From a bacterium (GTDB lineage: Bacteria; Patescibacteriota; Minisyncoccia; Phycocordibacterales; UBA9973): a DNA stretch of 50,418 nt. Position numbers and translations under genes: made by a program. This document shows positions 13,912 to 50,418 of this stretch, in pieces; positions within the stretch are counted from its first letter, which is position 1, and each line of letters begins with the position of its first letter. The stretch lies in the NCBI GenBank assembly GCA_037200905.1, contig JBBCGN010000006.1, positions 1 through 50,418 on the forward strand, given 5' to 3'. The notes below the pieces were generated by a model, which searched no databases, was not told the origin of the DNA, and saw only the letters and a list, made by a program, of their open reading frames with translations.

Positions 13912-14123
13912 ATGAAAAAAGCATTATTGATCGCGAGCCTCATCGTTCTCGTGTACGGCATCTCTACCAAGGACGGATTCTCATCAAGTATGGCCTGATA
14001 GTGTTCATCCTGTGGATCATGGTTGCACTGATATCCCGCAGCACTGCGCCCAAGCACGGACGATCTTCCGGTTCCTTGGACCAGTATCTCGATCGTTTGA
14101 GCAGCAAGAAGAAAGAGAGTTGA
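13912..14123 (+). CDS. Small membrane protein, frameshifted
   Basis: MKKALLIASLIVLVYG..YGLIVFILWIMVALI..KKKES* after a TTGACT promoter. Confidence 0.4.
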
Positions 14124-14224
14124 TAGTTGATGCCTTGCGTCTCGCGACCCCCCGAACCTGAAATACATGTATTTCAGGTTTTTTATGTGCGGCCCATGGC
14201 GGGGTAGGGCATGGTCTGCTGATC

Positions 14225-14266
14225 GGTGAAATGAGCTTGTATTCCAAGGCTGAAAGAGCATATTGA
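14225..14266 (+). repeat. Distal fragment of the tRNA-Glu-linked att-like repeat (copy G')
   Basis: CAAGGCTGAAAGAG[C/T]ATATTGACTTTT shared with 15013-15039. Reads GEMSLYSKAERAY*. Confidence 0.55.
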
Positions 14267-14333
14267 CTTTTATTTAAAATATGATATACTATATAACGTA
14301 ATCCCGATTTTTCACAATTAAATATATCGCCTC

Positions 14334-14933
14334 ATGGATCGCATTATTTCTTCCCTCGGAATGATCGCAGGAGTGATTGCTCTTATGGCATTTATTCCTT
14401 TCATTATTGCAATTCTGTCGAAAAAAGCTAAACCGAGTATCATTACCTGGACCACGTGGGCCATCGTCAACTTGTTGCTCTTAAAAAGCTATTACGATAG
14501 CGGAGCGCATAATACTCTTTGGCTGCCGATTACTTTTTTCACAGGAGACGTGATTATCTGTCTGCTTTCGCTCAAATACGGAGAAAAGATAATCACGAGG
14601 TTCGATAAGATATGCATTGCGCTTACCGTGCTCAACATTCTCGGAATAGTATTGTTTTCGTACGACAAGCATGCGGTGCTGGCGCTGTCAGTTATCACCT
14701 TGTTTGTCGGAGGATTGCCAACGGTCAAAAAATCTTGGCTACGCCCTCAAAATGAGAACAGATTAGTATGGTCGATGTTCACAGTCGCTGCAGTTCTCAA
14801 TCTTCTTTCGATAGAAGATTGGTCGCGATGGGAAATCATTGCTCATCCGCTATACGTATTCCTTATCGATGTTGGCGTTGCCACGATCCTTTGGATCAAA
14901 CGACACAAACAACCTGCAATTGTTAAATCGTAA
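14334..14933 (+). CDS. Multi-pass membrane protein with PQ-loop-like internal repeat
   Basis: Intact ORF, two similar halves (P..IIAIL..K.KP..TW and PTVKKSW..P..E...W), own promoter and terminator. Confidence 0.7.
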   Translation: MDRIISSLGMIAGVIALMAFIPFIIAILSKKAKPSIITWTTWAIVNLLLLKSYYDSGAHNTLWLPITFFTGDVIICLLSLKYGEKIITRFDKICIALTVLNILGIVLFSYDKHAVLALSVITLFVGGLPTVKKSWLRPQNENRLVWSMFTVAAVLNLLSIEDWSRWEIIAHPLYVFLIDVGVATILWIKRHKQPAIVKS

Positions 14934-14981
14934 TCGCGAAATCCTTAAAGCCCCATCCAGATATGGGGCTTTTTTATTTTT

Positions 14982-15034
14982 GTGACCCGTCGCAAGGGAA
15001 TATGCCGAAATACAAGGCTGAAAGAGTATATTGA
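14982..15034 (+). repeat. Internally deleted att-like repeat (copy G)
   Basis: GTGACCC core then AGGGAATATG. Reads GNMPKYKAERVY*, with the TGA inside a TTGACT box. Confidence 0.65.
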
Positions 15035-15102
15035 CTTTTATAAATCAATATGCTATAATATACATAAGAAAACAATTTTTTGACAATCAAATACACACAA
15101 TC

Positions 15103-15682
15103 ATGAAAATCAGCACTTTCTTTTTCGGAACTGCAATCATCGTTTTTTCTTCTTTTATCGCTTCATGCGGAGACTCTGAAGCCACAATGGCCATGCGCGC
15201 CAAACAGATTGCGGAGGACAGCATCGCGAAAGCGGCCGCAGCCCTTGCGCAAGCCAAAGCTGACAGCGCCGCCAAAGCCGAAGCTGCGATTACGGAATTG
15301 GTACCTGAAACTATTTCTGTTACAGAAGTAACAAGTACGAAATCCTCCAAAGAAGAGTTCAATAACGAAGGCTTGGCGGAAGTTAAAGCATCTTTCGGCA
15401 TTCACATCATTGCCGCAGGCAAAGCCTATGACGTGCAGGTAGAAAATGAAGACATGAATCACGAAGGCGGTAGCATTGAGAAATACGAAGACATGGACAA
15501 GCCCATCGCAGAAACTCACAAGCTCCGCGCCGGACATCCTTTCCAAGAATGTCACGAACTTTATCCTGTCAATCAACGGCAAGAACGAAGTTAAATCCTT
15601 TATTATGAAGGAAGAGATGAGCGGTGAAGCGGGAAAAGTGGGCACATACAAGCCCGCCGTAGTGATATGGAAAGCCCGCTGA
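15103..15682 (+). CDS. Putative lipoprotein, frameshifted near 15535
   Basis: Signal peptide with IASC lipobox and Ala-rich linker. Confidence 0.65.
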
Positions 15683-15724
15683 TGCGCCGAGAGAATTTTG
15701 GTTAGTAATAAAATCCCACGTGGT

Positions 15725-15755
15725 AGCCGATCAGAATATTCTGATCGGCTTTTTT
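15725..15755 (+). terminator. Intrinsic terminator, perfect 26-bp palindrome
   Basis: AGCCGATCAGAATATTCTGATCGGCT plus T-run. Confidence 0.75.
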
Positions 15756-15843
15756 ATTCGGCATACGGGAATATTATTGACTTTTACTACATAGTATGAT
15801 ACTATGTATGCGAAATAATCTTTTTAAACTTAAACCCTAGAAC

Positions 15844-16372
15844 ATGATACACGGTATTTCGACAGGCAGGCCCGGAGCCACGCGCTTCAGCCTTCGCGGC
15901 ACGGTGCTTAAGCACGTCACCCACACGACCGGCTGGTGGATATTCAAAGAAACATTTTACGGCATCCAGATCCAGCTCGATGAAAAACTGTAAAGCTGTG
16001 CGAAAAGCAATTCGGTAAGATTTACAATGTCGACGGATTTGAGGCCTCTATAGCGGGTGTCGTCAGTGTATTTTTTCCGCAAGAGGATATTGAAGACAAA
16101 GGCTTTGCGCCGGAACCAATGTCGGTATCACTTTTGCGAAAAGCGGACCGCTTGAGCAGTTCTTTAAAGGATCAGAGATGGTGATGGTAGTAGATGTGGT
16201 AAAGATTAAAGACGGCGTTCGCCTTGAAAACGAGCCGCTCCTATCCAGCTTTCTCTCTTATGATCGGCCGCACCAGATTTTGACAACAGGACTAAATTCC
16301 TGTTGTTTTTCTATTTGTGATCCTAGCGGTGCAGTATTGGAATACTGTAGTAGGGAATATAAGGGGATTTAA
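15844..16372 (+). CDS. Hypothetical protein in fragments, running into repeat copy A
   Basis: TTGACT promoter at about 15777, MIHGISTG.. start, open pieces in several frames up to 16372. Confidence 0.35.
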
Positions 16373-16379
16373 GATATAG
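16317..16379 (+). repeat. tRNA-Glu-linked att-like repeat (copy A)
   Basis: GTGATCCTAGCGGTGCAGTATTGGAATACTGTAGTAGGGAATAT. Confidence 0.85.
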
Positions 16380-16437
16380 AAAAATAAAAAACTCGTCAAA
16401 TTTGACGAGCTTTTAGTCTTAGATACTTCTTTAGAAA

Positions 16438-16785
16438 TTATTTTCGTTTCTTAGCATCAATAGAAAAACGATATAATCCGTAGAGACGAAGCATGGGCAA
16501 TATACCATCTTGAGTTGGTTCTTTGGAAACCAGCATAACCTGTTTGTCTTTTAGGTTGTTTGCTATTTTCCATTTTTTGAAAAACTTATTCGCCTCACGC
16601 CAAAGATAACCTAGTTCTTTTTTAGTTATCTTATTTCGATCAACTGTGATTGTCGCCTTGCGATCAATAACTGTAACGCTTCCGTGCAAATTAAAATTGT
16701 TATCTGCAACGGAGAAAGAAAAATTTGCTTCCGTATTAGAGGGAAGTAGATAACGGAATAATCCGTCTTTTACTGTCTGTATCAT
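16438..16785 (-). CDS. Hypothetical protein (cassette gene)
   Basis: Intact 115-aa AT-rich ORF between copies A and B, with own TTGACA promoter and terminator. Confidence 0.65.
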   Translation of the reverse strand: MIQTVKDGLFRYLLPSNTEANFSFSVADNNFNLHGSVTVIDRKATITVDRNKITKKELGYLWREANKFFKKWKIANNLKDKQVMLVSKEPTQDGILPMLRLYGLYRFSIDAKKRK

Positions 16786-16858
16786 TTGAGCTTATTTTTT
16801 TGTTGAAGAATTTGATGTTCACCTTTAAAGTAGCACGAAATAAATTGTTTGTCAATTT

Positions 16859-16933
16859 GTGATCCTAACGGTGCTGAATTGGAATACTGTAGTAGGGAAT
16901 ATGTTTAAATGCAAGATTGAAACAAGCTATTGA
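16859..16933 (+). repeat. tRNA-Glu-linked att-like repeat (copy B)
   Basis: GTGATCCTAACGGTGCTGAATTGGAATACTGTAGTAGGGAATATGTTTAAA...TATTGA. Confidence 0.85.
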
Positions 16934-16996
16934 CTTTTCATATAAAATATGCTTTACTATATAAGTAAACAAGTTCTAAAACAAATCAATACAAAT

Positions 16997-17293
16997 ATGG
17001 AAAAAGAACCGTTTGAAGAAAGAATGGTCCGGGTCCAGTGGCCCGAAACGTTTATCGGAAGATGGGTGGCAACCACCCTCTACGGCACTCACATGGAAGC
17101 AGATGTCGTCATTGCAGAGAGTCCTTCCGGCGTCATGTGTTTCGAAAGCAAAGATCACGGCCTGGCCTATTATGAGACGAAAGAGGTAAAGTTAATGGAG
17201 ATAAAAAAAGATTATCCGCGGCTTTACATAAGAGTCTTTGTGTGTGGAAGTACGGAGGAGGAGTTGAAAGAGCGGAAACTCAAGACGGCATGA
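16997..17293 (+). CDS. Hypothetical protein (cassette gene)
   Basis: Intact ORF after a TTGACT promoter, with terminator AACCATCCC-aca-AGGGATGGTT at about 17315. Confidence 0.65.
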   Translation: MEKEPFEERMVRVQWPETFIGRWVATTLYGTHMEADVVIAESPSGVMCFESKDHGLAYYETKEVKLMEIKKDYPRLYIRVFVCGSTEEELKERKLKTA

Positions 17294-17436
17294 CATGATT
17301 GCTGTCTGCAGTGAACCATCCCACAAGGGATGGTTTTTTATTTTGTCCTGAGATAAGCATTTATTACCTGACCGGTCAGAATATTCTGGCCGGTTTTTGA
17401 TTTTTCCGGAAAAAATGCTATTATCATCATGTTTTT

Positions 17437-17512
17437 GGCCCTTATCGTCTAACGGTTAGGACACCGCCTTCTCAAGGCAGTAATCAGAGTTCGATTCTCT
17501 GTAGGGTCACCA
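17437..17512 (+). tRNA. tRNA-Glu(CTC)
   Basis: Cloverleaf, anticodon loop TT-CTC-AA, GTTCGATTC T-arm, encoded CCA. One extra T in the acceptor 5' strand. Confidence 0.92.
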
Positions 17513-17599
17513 TTTAGAGAGCGCTCGAGAAGCGTCAAGATAATATTCAGTAAGTCTGTATACTACGAATTTAACTGAAAAGAGATATAATTTGAAGAT

Positions 17600-18315
17600 A
17601 TGGAAAAATCACCCGAAGAGACAAAAAGGATTGAGGCCTCGATGGAATTTGTCGAAAAATACTACACCGACGACATTGTCGAGAGAGCGAGTCCTGAAAG
17701 CGTGTGGGCAGCGCAGTGGGCGACCTATGTAGACGAAAATCCGTGCTTGATGTGGCATGCGGCCCGCAATTCTATGATGACGCATTGGCATTTGCTCAAA
17801 TTCCGAAAAAGTTCGTAGGGGTAGACCTCAATGAGGCCAACATTAAATTTTTAAAAACCTCCTTACACCCCAATATCATTAAAGCCAAGACAGAGCTTGA
17901 AAGAAACGGGTCGCAAGTTGAATTGCTTGTACAAGACATTACGGCAAGGAAGCCTGAATTCGATAGACAGTTCGACTCGGTATTCGCATCAGGAATCATC
18001 GGCAATTTTGGCATTGCAGAAACTAAAGCAGTCTTACAAAACATCAATTCCTATCTCGCTCTTGGAGGCCAATTCGTCATGGTGAGTTGGGGAGATGATT
18101 ATCTGAGCAAAGAAAAGAGTGAGGAAAGAGAGGCATCTGGATGGTATCAAAAGCAAGAATTGAAGCCGGAAGATTATGCTCGCTTAATCAGCGAGGCCGG
18201 CTTTACAATAGAAAAGCAAGAAGTGCATGAGGTCGCGGATCCTAAAGAGTATGAATGGGGCTGCATATTCGGCTTTATAGCGAGGAAAACCGTAGATAAA
18301 GAATCTTCAAACTAA
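17600..18315 (+). CDS. Class I SAM-dependent methyltransferase, frameshifted
   Basis: SVLDVACG, VGVDLN, QDIT, FDSVFASG, LALGGQF. Confidence 0.85.
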
Positions 18316-18320
18316 TTACA

Positions 18321-18392
18321 CTAAACTATTTCCGCCTTAAATTTAAGCATATTCCCTATCAAATAGTTCCAATTCCGCACCGTTAGGCTCAC
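18321..18392 (-). repeat. tRNA-Glu-linked att-like repeat (copy C)
   Basis: Reverse strand GTGAGCCTAACGGTGCGGAATTGGAACTATTTGATAGGGAATATGCTTAAATTT. Confidence 0.85.
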
Positions 18393-18440
18393 TGATAGAA
18401 AAATAAAAAATCCCGCACAATTTGTACGAGATTTCATGGA

Positions 18441-18947
18441 TCAACATTTAATGCTTCTGACGCTCTCAAAAATAGAGTTCAGTTGTTCTGCTAATAAATC
18501 GAGCTCTTTTCTCTTTTGACTGCAATCTAGAATATCCTTTGGGTATTGGTCTATGTACTCTTGTATGAGCACAGTCATTCTTTCACAAAAAGGATTATAT
18601 CTTATGTACTGCATCAATTCAGAGGAACCAAATTCAGGAGAGGGATTGTTCTTGATACGAAATTTATCTTTAGAAATAAAAAGCACAGTTTGACCAAAGT
18701 CATTGATACTATAAGAACAATGTTTGATTCCCACCAATATGCCAAAGTCAATCAAGCTTTTTAGAAAAGTTCCTTTTTTATCATTAAGAACTTTTAAGAG
18801 GTCATTTCGTTTTGTTGTGATTGTTTCGAATAGTTTTCTTAACTCTCCATCTTTATCAGAGATAAGCTCTTGAATCTTCTCGATTTCATTTTGGGCGTTC
18901 GATAGATATTTTTCAGCATTCTCCAGACCATTAAAGATTTGTTTCAT
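18441..18947 (-). CDS. Hypothetical protein with coiled-coil N-terminus (cassette gene)
   Basis: Intact 168-aa ORF with own promoter and terminator between copies C and D. Confidence 0.65.
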   Translation of the reverse strand: MKQIFNGLENAEKYLSNAQNEIEKIQELISDKDGELRKLFETITTKRNDLLKVLNDKKGTFLKSLIDFGILVGIKHCSYSINDFGQTVLFISKDKFRIKNNPSPEFGSSELMQYIRYNPFCERMTVLIQEYIDQYPKDILDCSQKRKELDLLAEQLNSIFESVRSIKC

Positions 18948-19008
18948 ATTTACGATTTAAGTATTTGAAGAATTTATTTCTGTCCCTATAATATCATATT
19001 AATAAAAG

Positions 19009-19083
19009 TCAATAGGCTAATTCCTCTTTAAATTTAAACATATTCCCTACTATAAAGTTCCAATTCAGCACCGTTAGGGTCAC
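19009..19083 (-). repeat. tRNA-Glu-linked att-like repeat (copy D)
   Basis: Reverse strand GTGACCCTAACGGTGCTGAATTGGAACTTTATAGTAGGGAATATGTTTAAATTT. Core TAGGGTCAC is identical to the tRNA 3' end. Confidence 0.87.
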
Positions 19084-19266
19084 AAATCTTTTGAGAGAGC
19101 AAACTGCTTTGCTCTAGAAAAAATTTGTGAAGACGGAGGCATATGTTTGCAGTGGCAAACAAGCCGAGTCCGGGTCTGGAAAATTTATGAGCGACGGCGA
19201 GTAAATTATTGTGGATCACTGATAGAAAAATAAAACTCTGTAGGATTTCCTACAGAGTAAAAATAA

Positions 19267-19710
19267 CTAAGCCACTGCTGAACTAACTTCTCTAAAAGTA
19301 ATAGAAGTAAGATTCTTGAAAGGTACAATGAGGTAACTTTGAACATGGTTGTCTACTTCTTCTGAATCAATACCTATCATCTCGTCATTATCGAATTCTG
19401 TAATTACAGTATATTTTGCAGAATCTTCTATTGACGGAAGGATAAATAGAACGGAGCGCTCATCTACTGCATACTTTCTCTTCTTGCCTTCAGGGTCTGC
19501 AACGGCATACATATCAATAGCTTGCGCGATCTTGTACTCGTGTGTACCTGGTTTTCCCTTGAGCTCGTAACTGAATATTATGCTCACGACAAAGTTACTT
19601 CCTTTTCCAAAAAGTTCACTGATCTTGTCCATCCAAAATATCGCCAATTGCTCATTATCATTGGTATCTGTTGGCTTTTTAATGACAATTCCATTATTTT
19701 CAGTATTCAT
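19267..19710 (-). CDS. Hypothetical protein (cassette gene)
   Basis: Intact 147-aa acidic ORF with terminator CTCTGTAGG-attt-CCTACAGAG. Confidence 0.65.
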   Translation of the reverse strand: MNTENNGIVIKKPTDTNDNEQLAIFWMDKISELFGKGSNFVVSIIFSYELKGKPGTHEYKIAQAIDMYAVADPEGKKRKYAVDERSVLFILPSIEDSAKYTVITEFDNDEMIGIDSEEVDNHVQSYLIVPFKNLTSITFREVSSAVA

Positions 19711-19796
19711 TGTTAAGGTTTTATGTGAATGTGCAAATTTGTTTACTATTAGACTTTATAACATATTTATGAAAAATCAATAGCTTTTATGAAAAA

Positions 19797-19871
19797 TCAA
19801 TAGCTAACTCCTCTTTAAAATTTAAGCATATTCCCTACCAGATAGTTCCAATTTTGTATACAAAGGGTCAC
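19797..19871 (-). repeat. tRNA-Glu-linked att-like repeat (copy E)
   Basis: Reverse strand GTGACCCTTTGTATACAAAATTGGAACTATCTGGTAGGGAATATGCTTAAATTT. Confidence 0.8.
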
Positions 19872-19899
19872 CTTTAACAGCTCGCACGAGAAGCGTATT

Positions 19900-20346
19900 T
19901 TGGAACAAAAAGTAGTACTTATCATTGGATTGCCTGGATCAGGAAAAACCACCTACATTGAACAGCATCAAGACATGTTTCATAATTTTGTCGTCTGTGA
20001 CGATTATCACAAATCAGCGCTGCAAAAATCCCGAGCATTCAACGACAGCATTTATTACAATGGTGTGCGAACGGCTCTTCTATCAGGCAAGAGCGTTGTC
20101 ATGGCCGACATCGCCTGGTGTAAATTTGAGCGCTTGGACATAGTAACTAAGGGGCTCCAAGAGCTTTGTAAAGAACTGAAAATAAATCCACCGATAGAAT
20201 TTCTTTATTTTGAAAACAATCCAGAAGCATGCAAAAGAAATGCGGTACACCGCGGGAGAAAAGAACGAGTCGATCGGGAAATAGAGTTTATTGATAAAAC
20301 CAGCAACAATATCGCATTCCAAACGAGGCTATTTCCATACAAATAG
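19900..20346 (+). CDS. P-loop kinase (AAA_33/nucleotide-kinase-like)
   Basis: IIGLPGSGKTT, VVCDD, SVVMAD, CKRNAVHR lid-like motif. TTG start, 3' end uncertain. Confidence 0.75.
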   Translation: MEQKVVLIIGLPGSGKTTYIEQHQDMFHNFVVCDDYHKSALQKSRAFNDSIYYNGVRTALLSGKSVVMADIAWCKFERLDIVTKGLQELCKELKINPPIEFLYFENNPEACKRNAVHRGRKERVDREIEFIDKTSNNIAFQTRLFPYK

Positions 20347-24422: not shown

Positions 24423-24875
24423 ATGTTGCACGAACAGATAAAAAACAGCTTGAAAGACGCTATGCTCGCCAAGGACGCGGTCAAGCTCAAGGCGGTGCGC
24501 AATATGCTCTCGGCTTTCACCAACGAGCTCGTGGCCAAGGGCAAGAAGCCGAACGAGTTCCTCTCCGACGAGGAAGCTCTGGCCGTCATCGCCCGCCTGG
24601 CCAAGCAGCGCAAGGACTCTATCGAACAGTTCCGGGCCGGCCAGAGGGAAGACCTGGTCAAGGAAGAGGGAGGCCGAGCTCGCCATCCTCGAAGTCTACC
24701 TGCCGAAGATGATGGAGAAGGCCCGAAGTGGGTCGGTATCGCCGAGGCCAAGAAGGCCGCGCTCGGCATCACCGACGCGGCGCACAAGGGCCTGCTCATG
24801 TCCGCGCTCATGAAAGACCTGAAGGGCAAGGCGGACGGCGCGACGGTCAAGGAGGCGGTGGACGGCCTGTTTTAA
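24423..24875 (+). CDS. yqeY: GatB/YqeY domain protein
   Basis: LKDAMLAKDAVK, KQRKDSIEQF, LEVYLP, GKADG. Confidence 0.9.
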   Translation: MLHEQIKNSLKDAMLAKDAVKLKAVRNMLSAFTNELVAKGKKPNEFLSDEEALAVIARLAKQRKDSIEQFRAGQREDLVKEEGGRARHPRSLPAEDDGEGPKWVGIAEAKKAALGITDAAHKGLLMSALMKDLKGKADGATVKEAVDGLF

Positions 24876-24886
24876 TACGCCCGCGT

Positions 24887-25490
24887 ATGTATACGGTAAA
24901 AATATTAACCCGGCTGATCGAGCACCATCAGGCGCTCGCATACGGCCTGATATTTCTCGGGCCTGATCTTCGAAGGGGAGATCACGCTCATCTCGGCCGG
25001 CGTTGCTGTCGCATCTCGGCCGCGCTCAACCTGTGGGCGACGCTCGCCATCGCCGTGGCCGGAGGGCTGACAAAGACTTTCTCGGCTATTCGTTCGGGCA
25101 ATTCCTGCACCGCAAGTTCAACCGTACGAAATTCCTGGCCTTACGTGGAGAAGCGGCGTTGCTCTACGTGGTGCCGCGTGTTCGCCGAGAAGCCGTTCTG
25201 GTCCATATTCCTTTCCAAATTCATCACCGGCGTGAACTATCTCGTAGTCATCTTCGCGGGATACAAGAAGATAGCCTGGAAGGACGTACCTCCGGGCGGA
25301 AATCACTTCGACGATCATCTGGGCGCCGCTCCTCCTCGCCATCGGCTACTTCTTCAGCTTCGCCGCCATCCACCTGAGCAGGGAAATCGGCGCTTCTTGC
25401 TCACGGTCGCTTCATTTACTATAATCTTCCTCCTCGTCCGACAGGCTGATCGGGCTCTTCTACGAGCTCTCCGAGCATTACAAGATGGGG
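24887..25490 (+). CDS. dedA: DedA/VTT family membrane protein, frameshifted, 3' end abuts the valS break
   Basis: LIFEGEITLISAG, FLSKFITGVNY, AGYKKIAWK..IWAPLL. Confidence 0.75.
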
Positions 25491-27304
25491 AGGAATGCTC
25501 CATGACGAAGCGGGATGCGTTCCACATTTTGTTGGCGAATTTCGCGTAGCCGCGGATATCATTTTCGTCCAGCTTGAGATCGTTGCCCGGCGTGTTGCCG
25601 ATGATCATGGCCATGCGCAGGGCATCATTGCCGTACTTTTCGATGATAGAAAGAGGATCGATGGCTTTCTCGCCGAGCGATTTCGACATCTTCTTGCCGT
25701 CGGCGGTGCGGACCATGCCGTGCAGGTATACGTTCTTGAACGGCACTTCGCCTAAGAGATATTGCGACATCAGGATCATGCGGGCGATCCAGAAGAAAAG
25801 AATATCGTGTCCAGTTTCGATAATCGTCGTGGGGTGATAGGTTTCCAAGTCTTTTGTTTTCTCCGGCCAGCCGAGGGTGGAGAATGTCCACAGTCCGGAA
25901 GAGAACCACGTATCGAGCGTATCTTCATCCTGGGTCCAGCCTTCGCCTTCAGGCGCTTCTATGCCGCAATATGCTTCGCTTTCGTTTCCTTTCGCCTTGT
26001 ACCAGACCGGTATGCGGTGTCCGTACCAGATCTGGCGGGAGATGCACCAGTCGCGCAGATTCTCGATCCAGTGGAAATAGGTCTTTTCGAAATGCTCAGG
26101 CATGATGTTTATCTTCTTTTCCCGTACCGGCTCGAGCATCAATTCTTTGAGCGATTTATCGCCGCGCGCAGGAATTTTCTTGTTCACGTCCACGAACCAT
26201 TGCAGCATGATCTGCGGCTCGATGATGCCGCCGGTGCGCTCTGCCGTAGCCACGCGGTTCACGTAATTCTCATCGATAGAAACGAGTAGGCCTTTCTCTT
26301 TCAGTTTTTCCACGATCTTGTCCCGGGCCTCGGCGATCTTCATGCCGGCGAATTCGCCGGCGATAGGGAGGAGCTTGCCGTACTTGTCGATGATCTGCTC
26401 GCGGTCGAGCTTGTATTTCTCGGCCAGGGCGAAGTCTTCATGCGAGTGCCACGGCGTGATGGTCATGACGCCGGTGCCGAAGTCCATGTCGATCATCTCG
26501 TCCTTTATGATGGTGGCCTCTACGGGGCCGTTGATCCACTCCACGGTGATTTTCTGCCCGTGCTCATAATTCTTGTATCGCGCATCGTCGGGATGCATGA
26601 CCACGTATTTGTCGCCGAATTTCGTTTCCGGCCGTGCCGTGCCTATCTCGAACGGGCCGTATTTGAAGGTATAAAATTTGCCTTTGCGCTCCTCGTAGAC
26701 GAGCTCGTCGTCGGAGATGACGGTCTGGCCTTTCGGATCCCAGTTCACCATCCTGTTGCCGCGATAGATGAGCCCGTCGTCATACATGGTTTTGAACGCA
26801 GTCCGTACGGCAACAGTGCGTTTTTTCGTCGAGAGTAAAAGCTTCGCGGGACCAGTCGAGGCTCGCTCCCATTTTCTTCGCCTGGTTGACGATGGTGTCG
26901 TGCGAGTCCTGAGCAAACTTCTCGACGCGCTTCAGGAATTCCTCGCGGCCGAGGTCGTTCTTGCGCACCCCTTCTTTTTCCAGAAGCTTCTCGACTTTCG
27001 ACTGCGTGGCGATGGCGGCATGGTCGGTGCCGGGAATCCATAATGTTTTTTTGCCCTGCATGCGGGCATGGCGCACCATGATATCCTGGATGACGATCAT
27101 GAGGGCGTGGCCGGTATGCAGATTGCCGGTGACGTTCGGAGGAGGCAAGATTATCGAGAAATGCTCGGCATCGGCCTTCGTGACGCCCTTTTCGATGCAA
27201 GTATCAGGATTGAAGAATCCGCTCTCTTCCCAGAGCTTGTATATGCGCTCTTCGGTGTTTTTGGCATCGTAAGGCTTCAGAAACTTTTCGTCCATAGCCT
27301 CCAT
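25490..27304 (-). CDS. valS: Valyl-tRNA synthetase, truncated before the anticodon-binding domain
   Basis: PPPNVTGNLHTGHA, GTDHAAIATQ, DWCISRQIWYGHRIP, KMSKS. Homology stops at KMWNASRFVMEH. Confidence 0.93.
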
Positions 27305-32845: not shown

Positions 32846-33042
32846 CCCGTTAGAAGCAGGTCGCGGTCAGGCCGTGACTGCTTGAAATTAAGGAATAATA
32901 TGTGCGACTGCGGCTTCTAATGGGATCCATGCTCTCAATTATAGCCGAAAAGGCCGGCAGGTACAGTTCATTGACTTTTACCCCACATGTGCTATGATAC
33001 TCGACGGTAAAATGATTTTGTACTTAAAAACCAAATTGAATT

Positions 33043-33357
33043 ATGCTGAAAAGACATCGCCAGACTGCAGAGCACATGATGAACATCTTCCAATTCCCGG
33101 GAGAAAGCGATCTCGAATACCGCAAAAGGGTATTCTTGCACGCGTATCCCTACGGCGACTTGTTCGCCGTAGAAGCCCTCTTTGCAGTCAACGATTGGAG
33201 AAATCTGTCCTCCGATGACAAGAGATTCATGGAGAAGGCGAAACAGACCTTTGACTCCGGCGGCATGATCGCGCTGCGGGCCCTCGTCGATTCCTTCGCC
33301 GAAGATCCCAGGCGATCGTACGCGCCACCGCATGAGAATGAGGCTGTGCGCGCATAA
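33043..33357 (+). CDS. Hypothetical protein
   Basis: Intact 104-aa ORF with promoter and palindromic terminator AAAACCCGGAACTAGTTCCGGGTTTT. Confidence 0.55.
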   Translation: MLKRHRQTAEHMMNIFQFPGESDLEYRKRVFLHAYPYGDLFAVEALFAVNDWRNLSSDDKRFMEKAKQTFDSGGMIALRALVDSFAEDPRRSYAPPHENEAVRA

Positions 33358-33559
33358 TGGCCGCACCAAAACCCGGAACTAGTTCCGGGTTTTTATTTTT
33401 GGACTAATCATCGAAGGAAGCCGCTATATATTGACAAATAACATAAACATGGCAAAATGGCTATGAAAAAAATTATCTTTGATCTTCAAAATCAACCTTG
33501 TTGAATTGCATGTTGACTTTTGTATATTAAAATGCACAATAAAGCGAAACTTATTTACA

Positions 33560-33910
33560 ATGAAAACAGAAAAAATACTTGAAGGTGCAATTCACCTTGA
33601 CAAGCTCATGGGCATTCAGGTTGCCGTCGTTCACCATCTAGGTACTGATGCGTTCAGCAGACCCCAAACAGGTTGCACGTATTATCAAGTCATCAATGAA
33701 TACGACCTTGGTAATTACGACGACATTGAAGATGGTGCGGAAGTGACCTTCAAAGTTGAAGAGCCGGGGATAAGCATCTACCGCTTCGGGGTCACGCAGA
33801 CTCGCTCTCAGTGCACCATTTTGACAATCAAGCGCAAAGGACAAATCATTGAAACTACCGACTACAGGTATGAAAAAGAGTACAGTAAACAAAAATCCGT
33901 GATTGTCTGA
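33560..33910 (+). CDS. Hypothetical protein (cassette gene)
   Basis: Intact ORF from MKTEKILEG, with TTGACT promoter and terminator. Confidence 0.6.
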   Translation: MKTEKILEGAIHLDKLMGIQVAVVHHLGTDAFSRPQTGCTYYQVINEYDLGNYDDIEDGAEVTFKVEEPGISIYRFGVTQTRSQCTILTIKRKGQIIETTDYRYEKEYSKQKSVIV

Positions 33911-34070
33911 TATTTATTAGTTTTTCAAAGCCGAACCGAAAGGACGGCTTTTTATTTTGTGAGCCTATGACCAGTAGAGACTTCTGGTCCCTTGCCCTAT
34001 AAAGCTATGCAAGACTTTGTCAGTGTATTATTTCGACCCTTCTCGGCTGCTCGGACCAGCTCTCTCATTG

Positions 34071-34149
34071 GTGAGCCTAGTGGTGCGGAATTGGAACTGG
34101 ATAGTAGGGGAAGAATATAAGGGGATTTACGATTACATTATACTATTGA
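34071..34149 (+). repeat. tRNA-Glu-linked att-like repeat (copy F)
   Basis: GTGAGCCTAGTGGTGCGGAATTGGAACTGGATAGTAGGG..AATATAAGGGGATTT...TATTGA. Confidence 0.8.
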
Positions 34150-34212
34150 CTTTTAATATATAATGTGATATTGTATATTTGAAATAAGCTTTTAAAACTA
34201 AAAATCAATAAA

Positions 34213-34554
34213 ATGGATAAAACAGATTTCGAATCAGAGAACTGGTTCATTACCCGCTACGATAAACATCACGGTGTAAGAATTAGTAAACGGGAAGATG
34301 ACAAAGTCATTTATGACATTGAATGCATGATAAAATACGGAATGTACGGTGTCACACCAACGAATGATACTCCAAAGATAGTACACGAATTACTATCAAT
34401 AACCGGAGTAAATCTTGTTGCTTATGATCCTCGTCCAGAGAAAGCCTGTGTTCGATTCATCAACGTTAACTCTTATTACAGAGAGAATGAGGTTCTCAAC
34501 CCTGCTAAGTTTATTTTGTCGAAATACAAAAACAGAGAACCCGTTCTTTATTGA
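34213..34554 (+). CDS. Hypothetical protein (cassette gene)
   Basis: Intact 113-aa AT-rich ORF after copy F and its promoter. Confidence 0.65.
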   Translation: MDKTDFESENWFITRYDKHHGVRISKREDDKVIYDIECMIKYGMYGVTPTNDTPKIVHELLSITGVNLVAYDPRPEKACVRFINVNSYYRENEVLNPAKFILSKYKNREPVLY

Positions 34555-34704
34555 TTAAGAATTTATAAATCCTTTGACCATAATGGTTGAAGGATTTTTT
34601 CTTATAGTAGCTCGAACCTTCTCGTACACCCGGTAAAGTTCGAATAAATTATTGACATAACTACAAAGTATGTTATACTGTACTTAAATTTAAAATAAAC
34701 AACA

Positions 34705-34995
34705 ATGCATCAAATCATTATTGTAGGCGCTGTAATCCTTGTAGGAATTCTCGCCATTTTGTTCTTCATGGTTTGGCTTCTATGGTTCAGAAGCTCTAAA
34801 GACTCTGTTTGGCCACAAATCACCAAATGTAATATCTGTGACAAGCAGGTATACGTGTGGCAGCTGCACGAACGCAGGAATATGGATATATCCATTTCAG
34901 GAGATATATTTCTGGGCAATATTTCCGGCTCAGCGATTGTTCATAAAAAATGTGAAGGTAGTCCGAAATCCAAAGTCACTGTAAACAGAGGTTAA
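34705..34995 (+). CDS. Small membrane-anchored protein with CxxC...HxxC motif
   Basis: N-terminal TM, KCNICDK, HKKCEG. Confidence 0.6.
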   Translation: MHQIIIVGAVILVGILAILFFMVWLLWFRSSKDSVWPQITKCNICDKQVYVWQLHERRNMDISISGDIFLGNISGSAIVHKKCEGSPKSKVTVNRG

Positions 34996-35106
34996 AAAAA
35001 CATCCGATGTCCGCTATATGTATATGGCGGACATTTTTTATTTGCTTCAATTATATCTCTTTTTCCAGATCTCGTAGCTATGCAAGCTTACCGAATTATT
35101 GCCTCA

Positions 35107-35154
35107 ACGCTACTCGAGCGCTCTCTAAAAGGTGAGGATTCAGCAGGTAGAACC
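35107..35154 (+). repeat. Copy of the tRNA-Glu(CTC) downstream flank plus a decayed tRNA 3' end
   Basis: 35107-35135 matches the reverse complement of 17507-17535 at 27/29 nt. Confidence 0.75.
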
Positions 35155-35239
35155 TTTCGATTCGTTGCCCTGCAAGGTTATTTCTAATAATTAGCGACTA
35201 ACATCCCGACCCTTCTCGTGAGTGTAAATTTTTGCTAGC

Positions 35240-35809
35240 TTAACAAAATTATTTCCTCGGCAATATTTTGAAAATTCATATTACTTGTATCAAAAATCGT
35301 ATGGGGTATAGGAATAATTTTCAGTAATTCGAGTAACTCGTCCTGTTGGCTAGAATAGTATCTAACGATTTCCTCTTGAGTATTTCCTTTTGTATTAACA
35401 TAATTATTCCACTCGTCATCTCTATGGGATTGAGCCAGAGAATTCTTTCTTCAAGTTTATTATTTGGTATCTCTAGGAAACAAATCTGTGCACTATTTTC
35501 CAATAACAAAGAAGCGCTTTCTGTGAAATCTTCGATATGTGCTCTAGTGCGCCAGATATGAGTAAGATAGAGACGGTCAAAAATAAGTATGCCTTTGCTC
35601 GAAGAAAGATATCTATTTAAAAGACCTGTAATATGGTCATTTGCTGTTACTGGATCAGTATTTTGAAGCAATGGCATTAGAGTTTCTTCCTCGCCGATAA
35701 ATGTGTAATCAAGTCCTCTTCGAGTGAGTATCTTTTCTAGTTCATTCTTCACGGAAGTTTTACCGCTAGTGGCGATGCCCTCAAGCATGATAATGCTAGT
35801 TTTCTTCAT
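35240..35809 (-). CDS. Thymidylate-kinase-like P-loop kinase, 3' end frameshifted
   Basis: IIMLEGIATSGKTS, LIFDR, ERIL. Confidence 0.65.
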
Positions 35810-35835
35810 AATATTCTAAAATAAAATCTTGTAAT

Positions 35836-36443
35836 TCAGTCGGGGAAGAGGACTATTCCTTTAAGATTTTCATGCGGTTCCCTTGTAACGTATGACTCAT
35901 CGTGAGATCCCCAAAGAACAGCAACTGTCGGTATTTTAGCACGGTCGGCTTCTCGAATATCGCCCAGCGTGTCGGTAACAAATAGCATGTCTTCTTTTTT
36001 TATCTGATACTTTTCTTCAATCATGTTAAATTTCTCAACTTTATTTCTTGAAATTTCTGCCGAGGCTACCAAATCAAACATATCTCGTATACCTGCTTTT
36101 TCCAAAAGCGGTAGTAGATTTCGCTCCATAGCAGAAGAATTGATGGTCAAAATGTAATCCTTTGCTTGAGGAATTTTAGTAATTCAAACATTCCGTCATA
36201 CATTCCGACTTCTAATTTTTGTTGTGAGTATGCCAGTTTTCTTGATTCTTTTTCTTCCTCTGTCCGAATAACGGCAGTATTGTTGAGTTTGAACTTCCGT
36301 ATTTCTTCATGGAAGTTCCCGGCCAATAACTCTTTGTGATGGCTTCTTGTCAGATAAGGATAATCTTCTAGAAAAGCATTCTCAGCAATTGTTACAGAGT
36401 CAAAGAGAACCCCGTCCATATCGAAGATGATCAATTTTTTCAT
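35836..36443 (-). CDS. HAD-superfamily hydrolase, frameshifted
   Basis: IIFDMDGVLFDS, LTINS, FVTDTLGDI, AVLWG. Confidence 0.85.
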
Positions 36444-45867: not shown

Positions 45868-47337
45868 ATGTCAGCAATCGACGAAATCAGGAGACGCTCG
45901 TCTCGCGAAGCTCAAGATTCTTCAGGGAGAGAAGGCATTGACCCGTATCCGGCTGATTCAAAGCGCGAGATAAGGCTCGCCGATGCCGCATCTCAATTCG
46001 AAACTCTGGAAAAGGACGGTGCGGCCAAATGGATCGCGGGCCGCGTCATGTCCGTGCGGGGGGGCAGGGCGGCCTCGTTTTCATAACGCTCAACGACGGC
46101 ACGGGAACATTTCAGGGCTTGCTCAAGAAAGACACGATTGGCGATGAAAACGTTCGATCTTTTCAACGATGTCGTAGACATCGGCGACTTCATCGAGATC
46201 GACGGCACTTTTTTCACTACCAAGCGTGGAGAAAAAGACTCTCGAAGCGAAAGAATGGCGCATGCTTTCCCAAGTCGCTCCTGCCATTGCCGGACAAATG
46301 GGATGGCTTGCAGGACGTGGAAATGCGCTTCCGCAAGCGATAATCTCGATATATTGATGAGTCCGGAGATCAAGGAACTTTTCGAGAAAAAGGTGAAGTT
46401 TTGGCGCCACTACGAGAAACTTTTTGGAGAAGCATAATTTCATGGAGGTAGAAACTCCTACTATAGAAGTCACCACCGGTGGCGCAGAAGCCCGGCCGTT
46501 CAAGACGCATCACAATGATTTCGATATCGACGTATTCATGCGCATCTCCGTCGGCGAGCTGTGGCAGAAGCGCCTGATTGGCTGCCGGTTTCGAGAAGAC
46601 GTTCGAGATCGGCCGCGTGTACCGCAACGAAGGCTCGAGCCCCGACCATCTGCAGGAATTTACCAATATGGAATTCTATGCCGCATACATGAATCTCGAT
46701 GCCGGCAAGGCATTGGTGCGCAATCTTTTCATAACCATCGCCAAAGAAGTTTTCGGTACGACAAGCTTCGAGACTCGCGGGTACAAGTTTGATTTCGATA
46801 CGGTATGGCCGGAAATAGACTATGTAGAAGAGATCAAAAAAAACTACCGGCATCGACGTGCTCGAGGACTCCGAAGCTACCATGATGAAAAAGCTGACCG
46901 AACTCGGGGGTCACCTACGAAGGCAAGAACAAAGAGCGCCTCACCGACTCGCTCTGGAAATACTGCCGCAAGCAGATCGCCGGTCCGGCTTTCCTCGTGA
47001 ACCATCCGAAGCTCGTCGCGCCGCTCTCGAAATCGAATCCCGACGACCCGCGGCAGACGATCATGTTCCAAGTCTTGCTCGCAGGTTCTGAACTCGGCCG
47101 CGCGCATGCAGAACTCAATGATCCTATCGATCAGGCAGAACGATTCGAATCACAGCAGAAATTGATTGATCGGGGAGATGATGAAGCCATGATGTCAGAT
47201 ACTGAATACGTAGAGATGCTCGAACACGGCATGCCGCCGACATTCGGATTCGGATTCGGGGAAGATTGTTTGCAATATTGTCGGATAAACCGATCCGTGA
47301 TACGCAACTCTTTCCGCTGATGCGGCCTAAAGAATAA
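45868..47337 (+). CDS. lysS: Lysyl-tRNA synthetase class II, frameshifted
   Basis: IAGRVMS OB-fold, [29 protein letters not shown]. Confidence 0.95.
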
Positions 47338-47744: not shown

Positions 47745-48195
47745 ATGCTCATCGGCGAATATATCCATACAATTGATGCCAAGAACAGAATTTCCTTGCC
47801 GGTAAAGTTCCGACAGGAGATGGGCAAAAAAAATTATCATCACTCCGGGACTCGACCAAGTGCTTGTTCATTTTCACAAACAAAGAGTGGGCCAAGGTTT
47901 CCAAGCGCCTTTCCGATACCGATTCCGACCTTTCCTTTCTCGAGGCAGACAAGCGCAGCTTCAACCGTTTCATGTTCGGCCGCGCGGCCGAAGTGGAAGT
48001 GGACTCCATCGGCAGGATCCTGATCCCCGATTTCCTCAAGGACCGCATCGGATTGAAGGACAAGGCTGCGGTGGTGGGGTGGGCGTGGAGGATCGCGTGG
48101 AGATCTGGAACGACAAGGTCTGGTCGCAGTACAAGGAAACCGTGGAGAAGCAGGCTGATCAGCTCGCGGAGAAGCTCGCCCGCGGCAGAGCATAA
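47745..48195 (+). CDS. mraZ: Transcriptional regulator MraZ, frameshifted
   Basis: MLIGEYIHTIDAKNRISLP, DSIGRILIP, RVEIW. Confidence 0.95.
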
Positions 48196-49501: not shown

Positions 49502-50418
49502 GCTTTTCTCGAGAACTTCGGTACTGTCCCTCGGCGTCATCGTGTTCGCGCTCGTCCTCATCTCGAGGCTTTTTTGGCTGCAGGTGCTCCATTCGAGCGC
49601 TTATTCCGAGAAGAGCCGACCGCCAGTACGTCTACGCCGTCGTCGAACATTCTTCGAACGGGAGGCACCATGTTCTTCCAGAACAAGGACGACGGCCTCG
49701 TCTCCGCCGCCCTGCAGACGGCCGGATTCAAGATCGCCATCAATCCGACGGAGCTCGCCGACAAGGAATCCGCGTACGCGGGTATCAATGCCGTCGTACC
49801 GGTCGCCAAGGACGATTTCATGAACAAGGCCGCCAAGTCCACAGACCCGTACGAAGAGGTGGCCACGCATCTTTCGAAAGACGAAGCCGACGCCGTCACG
49901 GCCAAGAAGATTCCCGGCGTCTACATATACAAGGAGAAGTGGCGCTTCTATCCCGGCGAGAACCTGGCGTCGCAGTCGCTCGGGCTCTTGGGCTACAAGG
50001 GCGACAATGCTCGGCGGCCGCTACGGCCTCGAGCGCCAGTACGACGACGTGCTGGCGGAGAACGAGGACGATTCTTACGTGAACTTCTTCGCCCAAGTGT
50101 TTTCCAATATCAACAAGACGCTCTTCGAGAGCGGCAAGAAGAGCGGGGACGTGGTCACCACCATCGAGCCGACGGTGCAGAGCTTCCTCGAGAAATCTCT
50201 CGCGGGCGTCCGCGACAAATACAATACCGATTCCATCGGCGGCATCATCATGAATCCGAAGGACGGCTCGATCTACGCCCTCTCGGTGAAGCCCGATTTC
50301 GATCCGAACTGACGTCTCCAAGGTCAAGAACGTGGCCGTGTTCTCGAATCCGCTCGTCGAGAGAACGTCCTCGAGTTCGGCTCGGTGGTCAAGCCGCTCG
50401 TCATGGCCGCGGCGCTCG
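49491..50418 (+). CDS. ftsI: Penicillin-binding protein (FtsI/PBP2 type), N-terminal part, frameshifted
   Basis: RLFWLQV, RGTMFF, WRFYPG..LASQSLG, GRYGLERQYD, TTIEPTVQ, IIMNPKDG, and GSVVK (SxxK) at the very end. Confidence 0.93.

Follow-up and report, generated by a model that had tools for sequence, protein, structure and literature searches.

Naturally split or truncated aminoacyl-tRNA synthetases exist, the split AlaRS of Nanoarchaeum being one example. The locus analyzed here resembles that case in that a synthetase frame stops ahead of the part that binds tRNA. However, no separate C-terminal piece is found here, the relatives have fused, full-length enzymes, and the frame stops exactly where two contig ends have been artificially joined. 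Chimeric or misjoined MAG contigs offer another comparison: as in such contigs, sequences that are not neighbors have become adjacent and genes have been cut, with no repeat, att site, or terminator. In contrast to them, both sides of the join belong here to the same organism and to the same contig, and the join lies at a predictable midpoint rather than at a shared repeat.

A different kind of system is the start-fixing software that is applied to assembled contigs. When run as a stand-alone step, fixstart rotates all input sequences, without a test of circularity. In the absence of a dnaA match, Circlator fixstart rotates a contig to the Prodigal gene that lies nearest to its middle (Hunt et al., 2015; Genome Biol 16:294, PMC4699355). 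All six contigs of the present assembly look like the output of this procedure, as each record begins at the start codon of a predicted forward-strand gene, the one nearest to the original middle, and, wherever the junction could be placed, the former ends lie joined close to the middle of the rotated record. The difference is that Circlator fixstart was made for truly circular contigs, whereas the inputs here are linear pieces of one chromosome.

The window, that is, the whole stretch of DNA that was analyzed (50,418 bp), is the complete contig C6 of this assembly. A preliminary description of it had drawn attention to a valine-tRNA ligase gene (valS) that is cut mid-gene and fused to dedA, and had proposed that the fusion marks a circularization breakpoint. 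We consider it very probable (about 94%) that the valS–dedA fusion is a bioinformatic artifact, in which the ends of a linear contig were glued together by start-fixing software.

The Assembly and Its Frame Switches

The assembly, a CPR genome out of a metagenome, consists of six contigs (676,658 bp) and is 72% complete. At least 84 frame switches within conserved genes are found across it. In the window, several of these lie at or beside homopolymer runs (T6, A8, C6, and G5), and example sites are 26822–26826, 47828–47831, and 287–321. Such a load fits an unpolished long-read assembly, the kind on which start-fixing tools get run, and the seeming pseudogenes dedA, tsaD, metS, ileS, and dnaA are probably the product of sequencing errors.

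The closest relative is genome G006, whose ValS is 85% identical, and gene order was compared with its contigs C15 and C20 by tblastx. Two stretches of the window, 14000–20000 and 33000–36000, have a G+C content of 0.36–0.44, vs. 0.52–0.62 in the rest of the window, and are without a counterpart in G006.

The valS Fragment, dedA, and Their Junction

The valS fragment occupies positions 25495–27304 of the minus strand and corresponds to codons 1 to approximately 603 of the roughly 720-codon valine-tRNA ligase of the Paceibacteria type (PF00133). It carries a single frameshift, at 26822–26826. In a tblastn search with the best homologue (P0001, 728 aa), residues 1–161 matched 27304–26822 and residues 160–600 matched 26826–25492, after which nothing was aligned; similarly, the G006 ValS, a 739-residue open frame, aligns as far as residue 611. 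Against close homologues, the homology ends at 25492–25495, the last matching residues being ..KFANKMWNASRFVMEH, with the His codon at 25495–25497. The fragment is thus without most of the anticodon-binding domain. This amounts to some 125–130 codons, and not to several hundred, because ValS in this lineage (Paceibacteria-type Patescibacteria) has only 715–750 aa. Beyond the limit of homology, the valS frame reads on into dedA antisense for 46 codons (25354–25494, minus strand) before it meets a stop, within an ORF that extends over 25354–26916. The 46-codon extension, which matches no Pfam family and has no homology to ValS, is meaningless.

On the other side lies dedA, which encodes a VTT-domain membrane protein and is recognized at 24887–25505 of the plus strand by homology to the G006 DedA, with a TGA at 25503–25505; PF09335 is detected on the G006 homologue. 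Residues 13–147 of the latter match 24872–25282 and residues 147–219 match 25281–25499. The homology stops at 25490–25499, ending in ..LIGLFYELSEHYKMG, so that at most 5–8 codons are lost from the 3′ end relative to G006. At least five frameshifts are present in dedA within the window, and its "decayed" look is explained by the noise of the assembly.

Alignment to close homologues fixes the breakpoint within 25491–25499, where the two homologies meet without any spacer. The tail-to-tail arrangement that had been described, with neither intergenic DNA nor a terminator between a cut valS and dedA, is therefore confirmed. No repeat, palindrome, or terminator exceeding chance was detected around the breakpoint, as had also been noted for repeats, and the earlier view that tRNA- or att-mediated excision does not account for the join is upheld. 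Blastn comparison of the junction flanks with the other contigs (word size 9) found no match, which indicates an absence of overlap between contigs.

In G006, valS (minus strand, 51.7–53.9 kb) and dedA (plus strand, 80.5–81.2 kb) are 28 kb apart on C15, and synteny at the junction jumps from approximately 81.1 kb to 52.1 kb of that contig. With valS and dedA oriented in this way, the tail-to-tail fusion can arise only if the end of the segment is joined to its start, and simple deletion or inversion was rejected. When cut at 25.49 kb, the window becomes colinear with G006:C15 from 52121 (mid-valS) to approximately 81150 (the end of dedA), in the order 25492 to 50309 and then 4 to approximately 25499. 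Since colinearity runs through the end and the start of the window, the record is a rotated form of a linear piece, and 25.49 kb is the place where its true ends meet. The proposal that the join unites both ends of a linear piece of chromosome is thus formally right; what is not supported is the notion of a biological circle in which an essential gene is cut, as midpoint joins of this kind and ATG starts also occur in the other contigs of the assembly.

ValS in Related Genomes

The best 120 database matches to ValS are 635–769 aa in length and 80–88% identical to it. The Anticodon_1 domain (PF08264) is present in 119 of them, and the exception is labeled partial by its source. Among 30 relatives, 29 have an open frame of 679–838 residues at the ValS match, and in none does ValS end at around 600 residues. 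The loci of 11 relatives were inspected; all contain a full-length valS with a contiguous C-terminal domain, followed downstream by genes for a PrsW-family protease and then Hsp20, and dedA lies beside valS in none of them. Hence a ValS that ends naturally at this point next to a convergent dedA, which could have explained the arrangement, has no case among the 30 relatives and 11 loci.

To find the missing part, the entire assembly was searched in every frame by tblastn, the queries being the C-terminal portions of two homologues and of the G006 ValS. No ValS C-terminus was matched, and the valS 3′ end is absent from the assembly. A Pfam search for Anticodon_1 in all frames returned only leuS (on C3) and ileS (on C1), so that a separately encoded C-terminal domain, the other natural explanation that had been envisaged, has no gene in this assembly. 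Neither of the features that would identify a naturally truncated or split ValRS, a short form common to the relatives or a separate anticodon-binding gene, was observed.

One genome of the same genus, G015 (99% complete, 8 contigs), gave no ValS match. The open frame that contains its best match (E 5.6e-15) has 1190 residues and in this respect resembles the weaker matches to class I synthetases in other relatives. This lack of a ValS match could reflect an assembly gap or something more interesting.

Other Class I Synthetases in the Assembly

The other class I synthetase loci of the assembly were considered as a possible second valS and rejected, as they are ileS (C1), leuS (C3), and metS (C1). 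Two of these genes have inserted domains. In ileS (C1:45389–47965, minus strand), a histidine-phosphatase domain (PF00300, E 7e-35; about 200 aa) is inserted between positions 265 and 280 of the catalytic-core profile, upstream of KMSKS. Many relatives have open frames of approximately 1100–1360 residues at the weaker class I synthetase matches, which suggests that the ileS insert may be conserved in the genus. In leuS (C3:29384–32245, minus strand), a 954-residue open frame, the inserted domain is a NUDIX hydrolase (PF00293, E 7e-15).

A Rotation Signature across the Assembly

Each of the six contigs has at its first base an ATG that opens a plus-strand ORF (63–857 codons), and the probability of ATG alone occurring by chance at six starts is (1/64)^6, or about 1.5e-11. 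In addition, this first ORF spans the old midpoint in every contig. In the window it is a 203-codon ORF of the plus strand (1–612), a fragment of ftsI/PBP created by a one-base indel in a G run, after which its ATG was called as a start inside ftsI; it spans the old midpoint near base 285 and, being closest to the middle of the unrotated contig, was picked to open the new record.

The end of the record (50341–50418, plus strand) runs directly into base 1 within ftsI. Positions 49983–50309 of the window correspond to 72280–72606 of G006:C15 and positions 4–321 to 72715–73032; the distance from 50309 through the record end to 4 is 112 nt, vs. 109 nt between 72606 and 72715 in G006, so that the sequence is continuous within 3 nt. 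The apparent 50.4-kb circle, closing within ftsI, is consequently due to a rotation cut and is not a biological closure. The comparison of end-to-start continuity covers C2, C4, C5, and C6, the ends of C1 and C3 being without conserved genes, and in all four contigs gene order relative to G006 passes from the record end to the record start.

The counterpart of this continuity is a break in gene order near the middle of the record. In the window the junction lies about 282–290 bp beyond the contig midpoint (25209). In C2 it is placed at 46369–46420 (midpoint 46264, offset +105 to +156), where a tRNA adjoins a CofE-like gene that appears to be without some 30 N-terminal codons. In C3 the junction is at approximately 20907 (midpoint 20641, offset +258 to +283); there, hisS is cut mid-gene and adjoins a 95-residue ORF, itself cut at about residue 38. 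In C4 it is at approximately 34990 (midpoint 34348, offset +611 to +646), where a cut surface-protein gene adjoins an obg without its first 12–14 codons or so. The C1 junction is bracketed at 160038–161000 (midpoint 160015, offset +22 to +985), and for C5 gene order did not locate a junction, the region from 39.4 to 54.4 kb being without genes conserved in G006. All of the resolved junctions are on one side of the midpoint, at +105 to +646 bp. A record start at a start codon, contiguity of record end and record start, and a near-midpoint break in gene order with cut genes, which together characterize a rotation artifact, are thus all present.

Contig Ends and the Gaps between Them

Once the rotation is undone, the original ends tile the G006 chromosome in the order C3, a 2.3-kb gap, C6, a 1-kb gap, and C4. 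C3 starts at approximately 49.8 kb of G006:C15 and runs down, and C6 starts at 52121 and runs up. In G006, the interval between them contains the rest of the 95-residue ORF, a GIY-YIG gene, hsp20, prsW, and the final 128 valS codons. At its other end, C6 stops at about 81.15 kb, whereas the start of C4, within obg, lies at about 82.13 kb; in G006, this second gap contains a gene of the MYG1 family. Searches of the whole assembly for the C-terminus of ValS, PrsW, Hsp20, and MYG1 gave no match. The missing ValS domain lies within an ordinary assembly gap of a 72%-complete genome.

Origin of the Junction

The sequence of events that we favor is the following. Contig C6 would originally have been linear, with one end inside valS and the other at the 3′ end of dedA, these limits being set by gaps that flanked it in a noisy assembly of long metagenome reads. 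Every contig of the bin would then have been handled as circular by a start-fixing step, which joined the last base of the contig to the first and opened the resulting "circle" again at an ATG close to its middle. Such a step would leave the true ends fused at approximately the midpoint (25491–25499) and the ends of the record inside ftsI. Fused ends and a new cut near the middle are what is expected when fixstart, with no circularity test, is applied to a bin of linear contigs. From the match to the documented rule, we infer that a program of the Circlator fixstart type was used. The dnaA gene of the assembly is frameshifted and lies inside C1, at 128.8–129.3 kb, which would explain why it went unrecognized. 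Rotation to a random CDS start, half-length rotation between polishing rounds, and rotation to dnaA only were also considered, and none of them predicts both an ATG start and a midpoint junction. Presumably, no read spans 25491–25499.

The join could also have been made one step earlier, if the assembler itself had connected the ends, misled by a chimeric long read or by its own wrong call of circularity, the contig being legitimately rotated afterward. The assembly is noisy and long-read-like, mistaken circular flags are set by assemblers from time to time, and the end result expected for C6 is the same. However, a wrong circular flag would be needed on all six contigs, and blind rotation is simpler; we regard this course of events as very unlikely, and it, too, makes the valS–dedA join an artifact. 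It is still harder to credit a real 50-kb circle, or a tandemly duplicated or amplified segment running from mid-valS to the end of dedA, whose novel junction the assembler resolved into a loop or circle. The topology agrees with such an origin, with the right end of the segment joined to its left end in a tail-to-tail manner that plain deletion or inversion cannot yield, and the record closes cleanly at ftsI. Against this, a mere 285 bp separate the junction from the exact midpoint, the first codon of the record is an ATG, as in the five other contigs, and equivalent truncations of genes in mid-record occur on three other contigs. Six "circles" that tile one chromosome with gaps of 1–2.3 kb are not credible, and the flanking contigs stop 1–2.3 kb short of the borders of the segment, unlike what would be expected around a duplication. 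The assembly also has no intact valS or valS 3′ end, a point that is weak alone, since the assembly is 72% complete. An excised circle, an integrative element, or an amplification would be marked by a recombination signature at the junction (an att site or direct repeat, or a recombinase) together with an intact parental copy of the cut gene elsewhere, but no repeat beyond chance and no such copy were found. A circular amplicon or tandem duplication of core genes (valS to dedA, including ftsI and tsaD) whose junction falls near the midpoint by coincidence is accordingly very improbable.

A genuine rearrangement would have left either a valS pseudogene or an enzyme still functional although most of the anticodon-binding domain is lost or is supplied by another gene. 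Genome reduction is a trait of symbiont-like CPR bacteria, and a number of genes in the record have a broken appearance; yet the apparent decay consists of scattered frame switches, several of them at homopolymer runs of C6. In G006, valS and dedA are 28 kb apart in an orientation that excludes a simple deletion, no second valS exists in the assembly, a free-standing Anticodon_1 gene is absent besides leuS and ileS, and the full-length gene is kept in all of the relatives that have a ValS. A truncation of valS in the organism itself therefore seems extremely unlikely.

Consequences

The gluing of linear contig ends by a start-fixing step has consequences beyond valS, as it implies an artificial join near the middle of every contig of a public genome and calls for a quality warning. 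The joins cut valS and dedA on C6, hisS on C3, obg on C4, and the CofE-like gene on C2, and the ends of the records are false "circular closures," that is, rotation cuts within continuous sequence. Inferences drawn at these places would be misled, whether they concern truncated essential genes, fusions, 50-kb circles, missing domains, synteny, or estimates of completeness. The same defect is probably present in other genomes from the same pipeline, and a cheap screen would be to look for an ATG at the start of every contig together with a break in gene order at half its length (L/2).

With regard to the bacterium itself, the valS–dedA junction is not a real biological feature and says nothing about the organism. 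It is almost certain that the latter possesses an ordinary valS of full length, with prsW and hsp20 downstream, located in the unassembled gap between C3 and C6.
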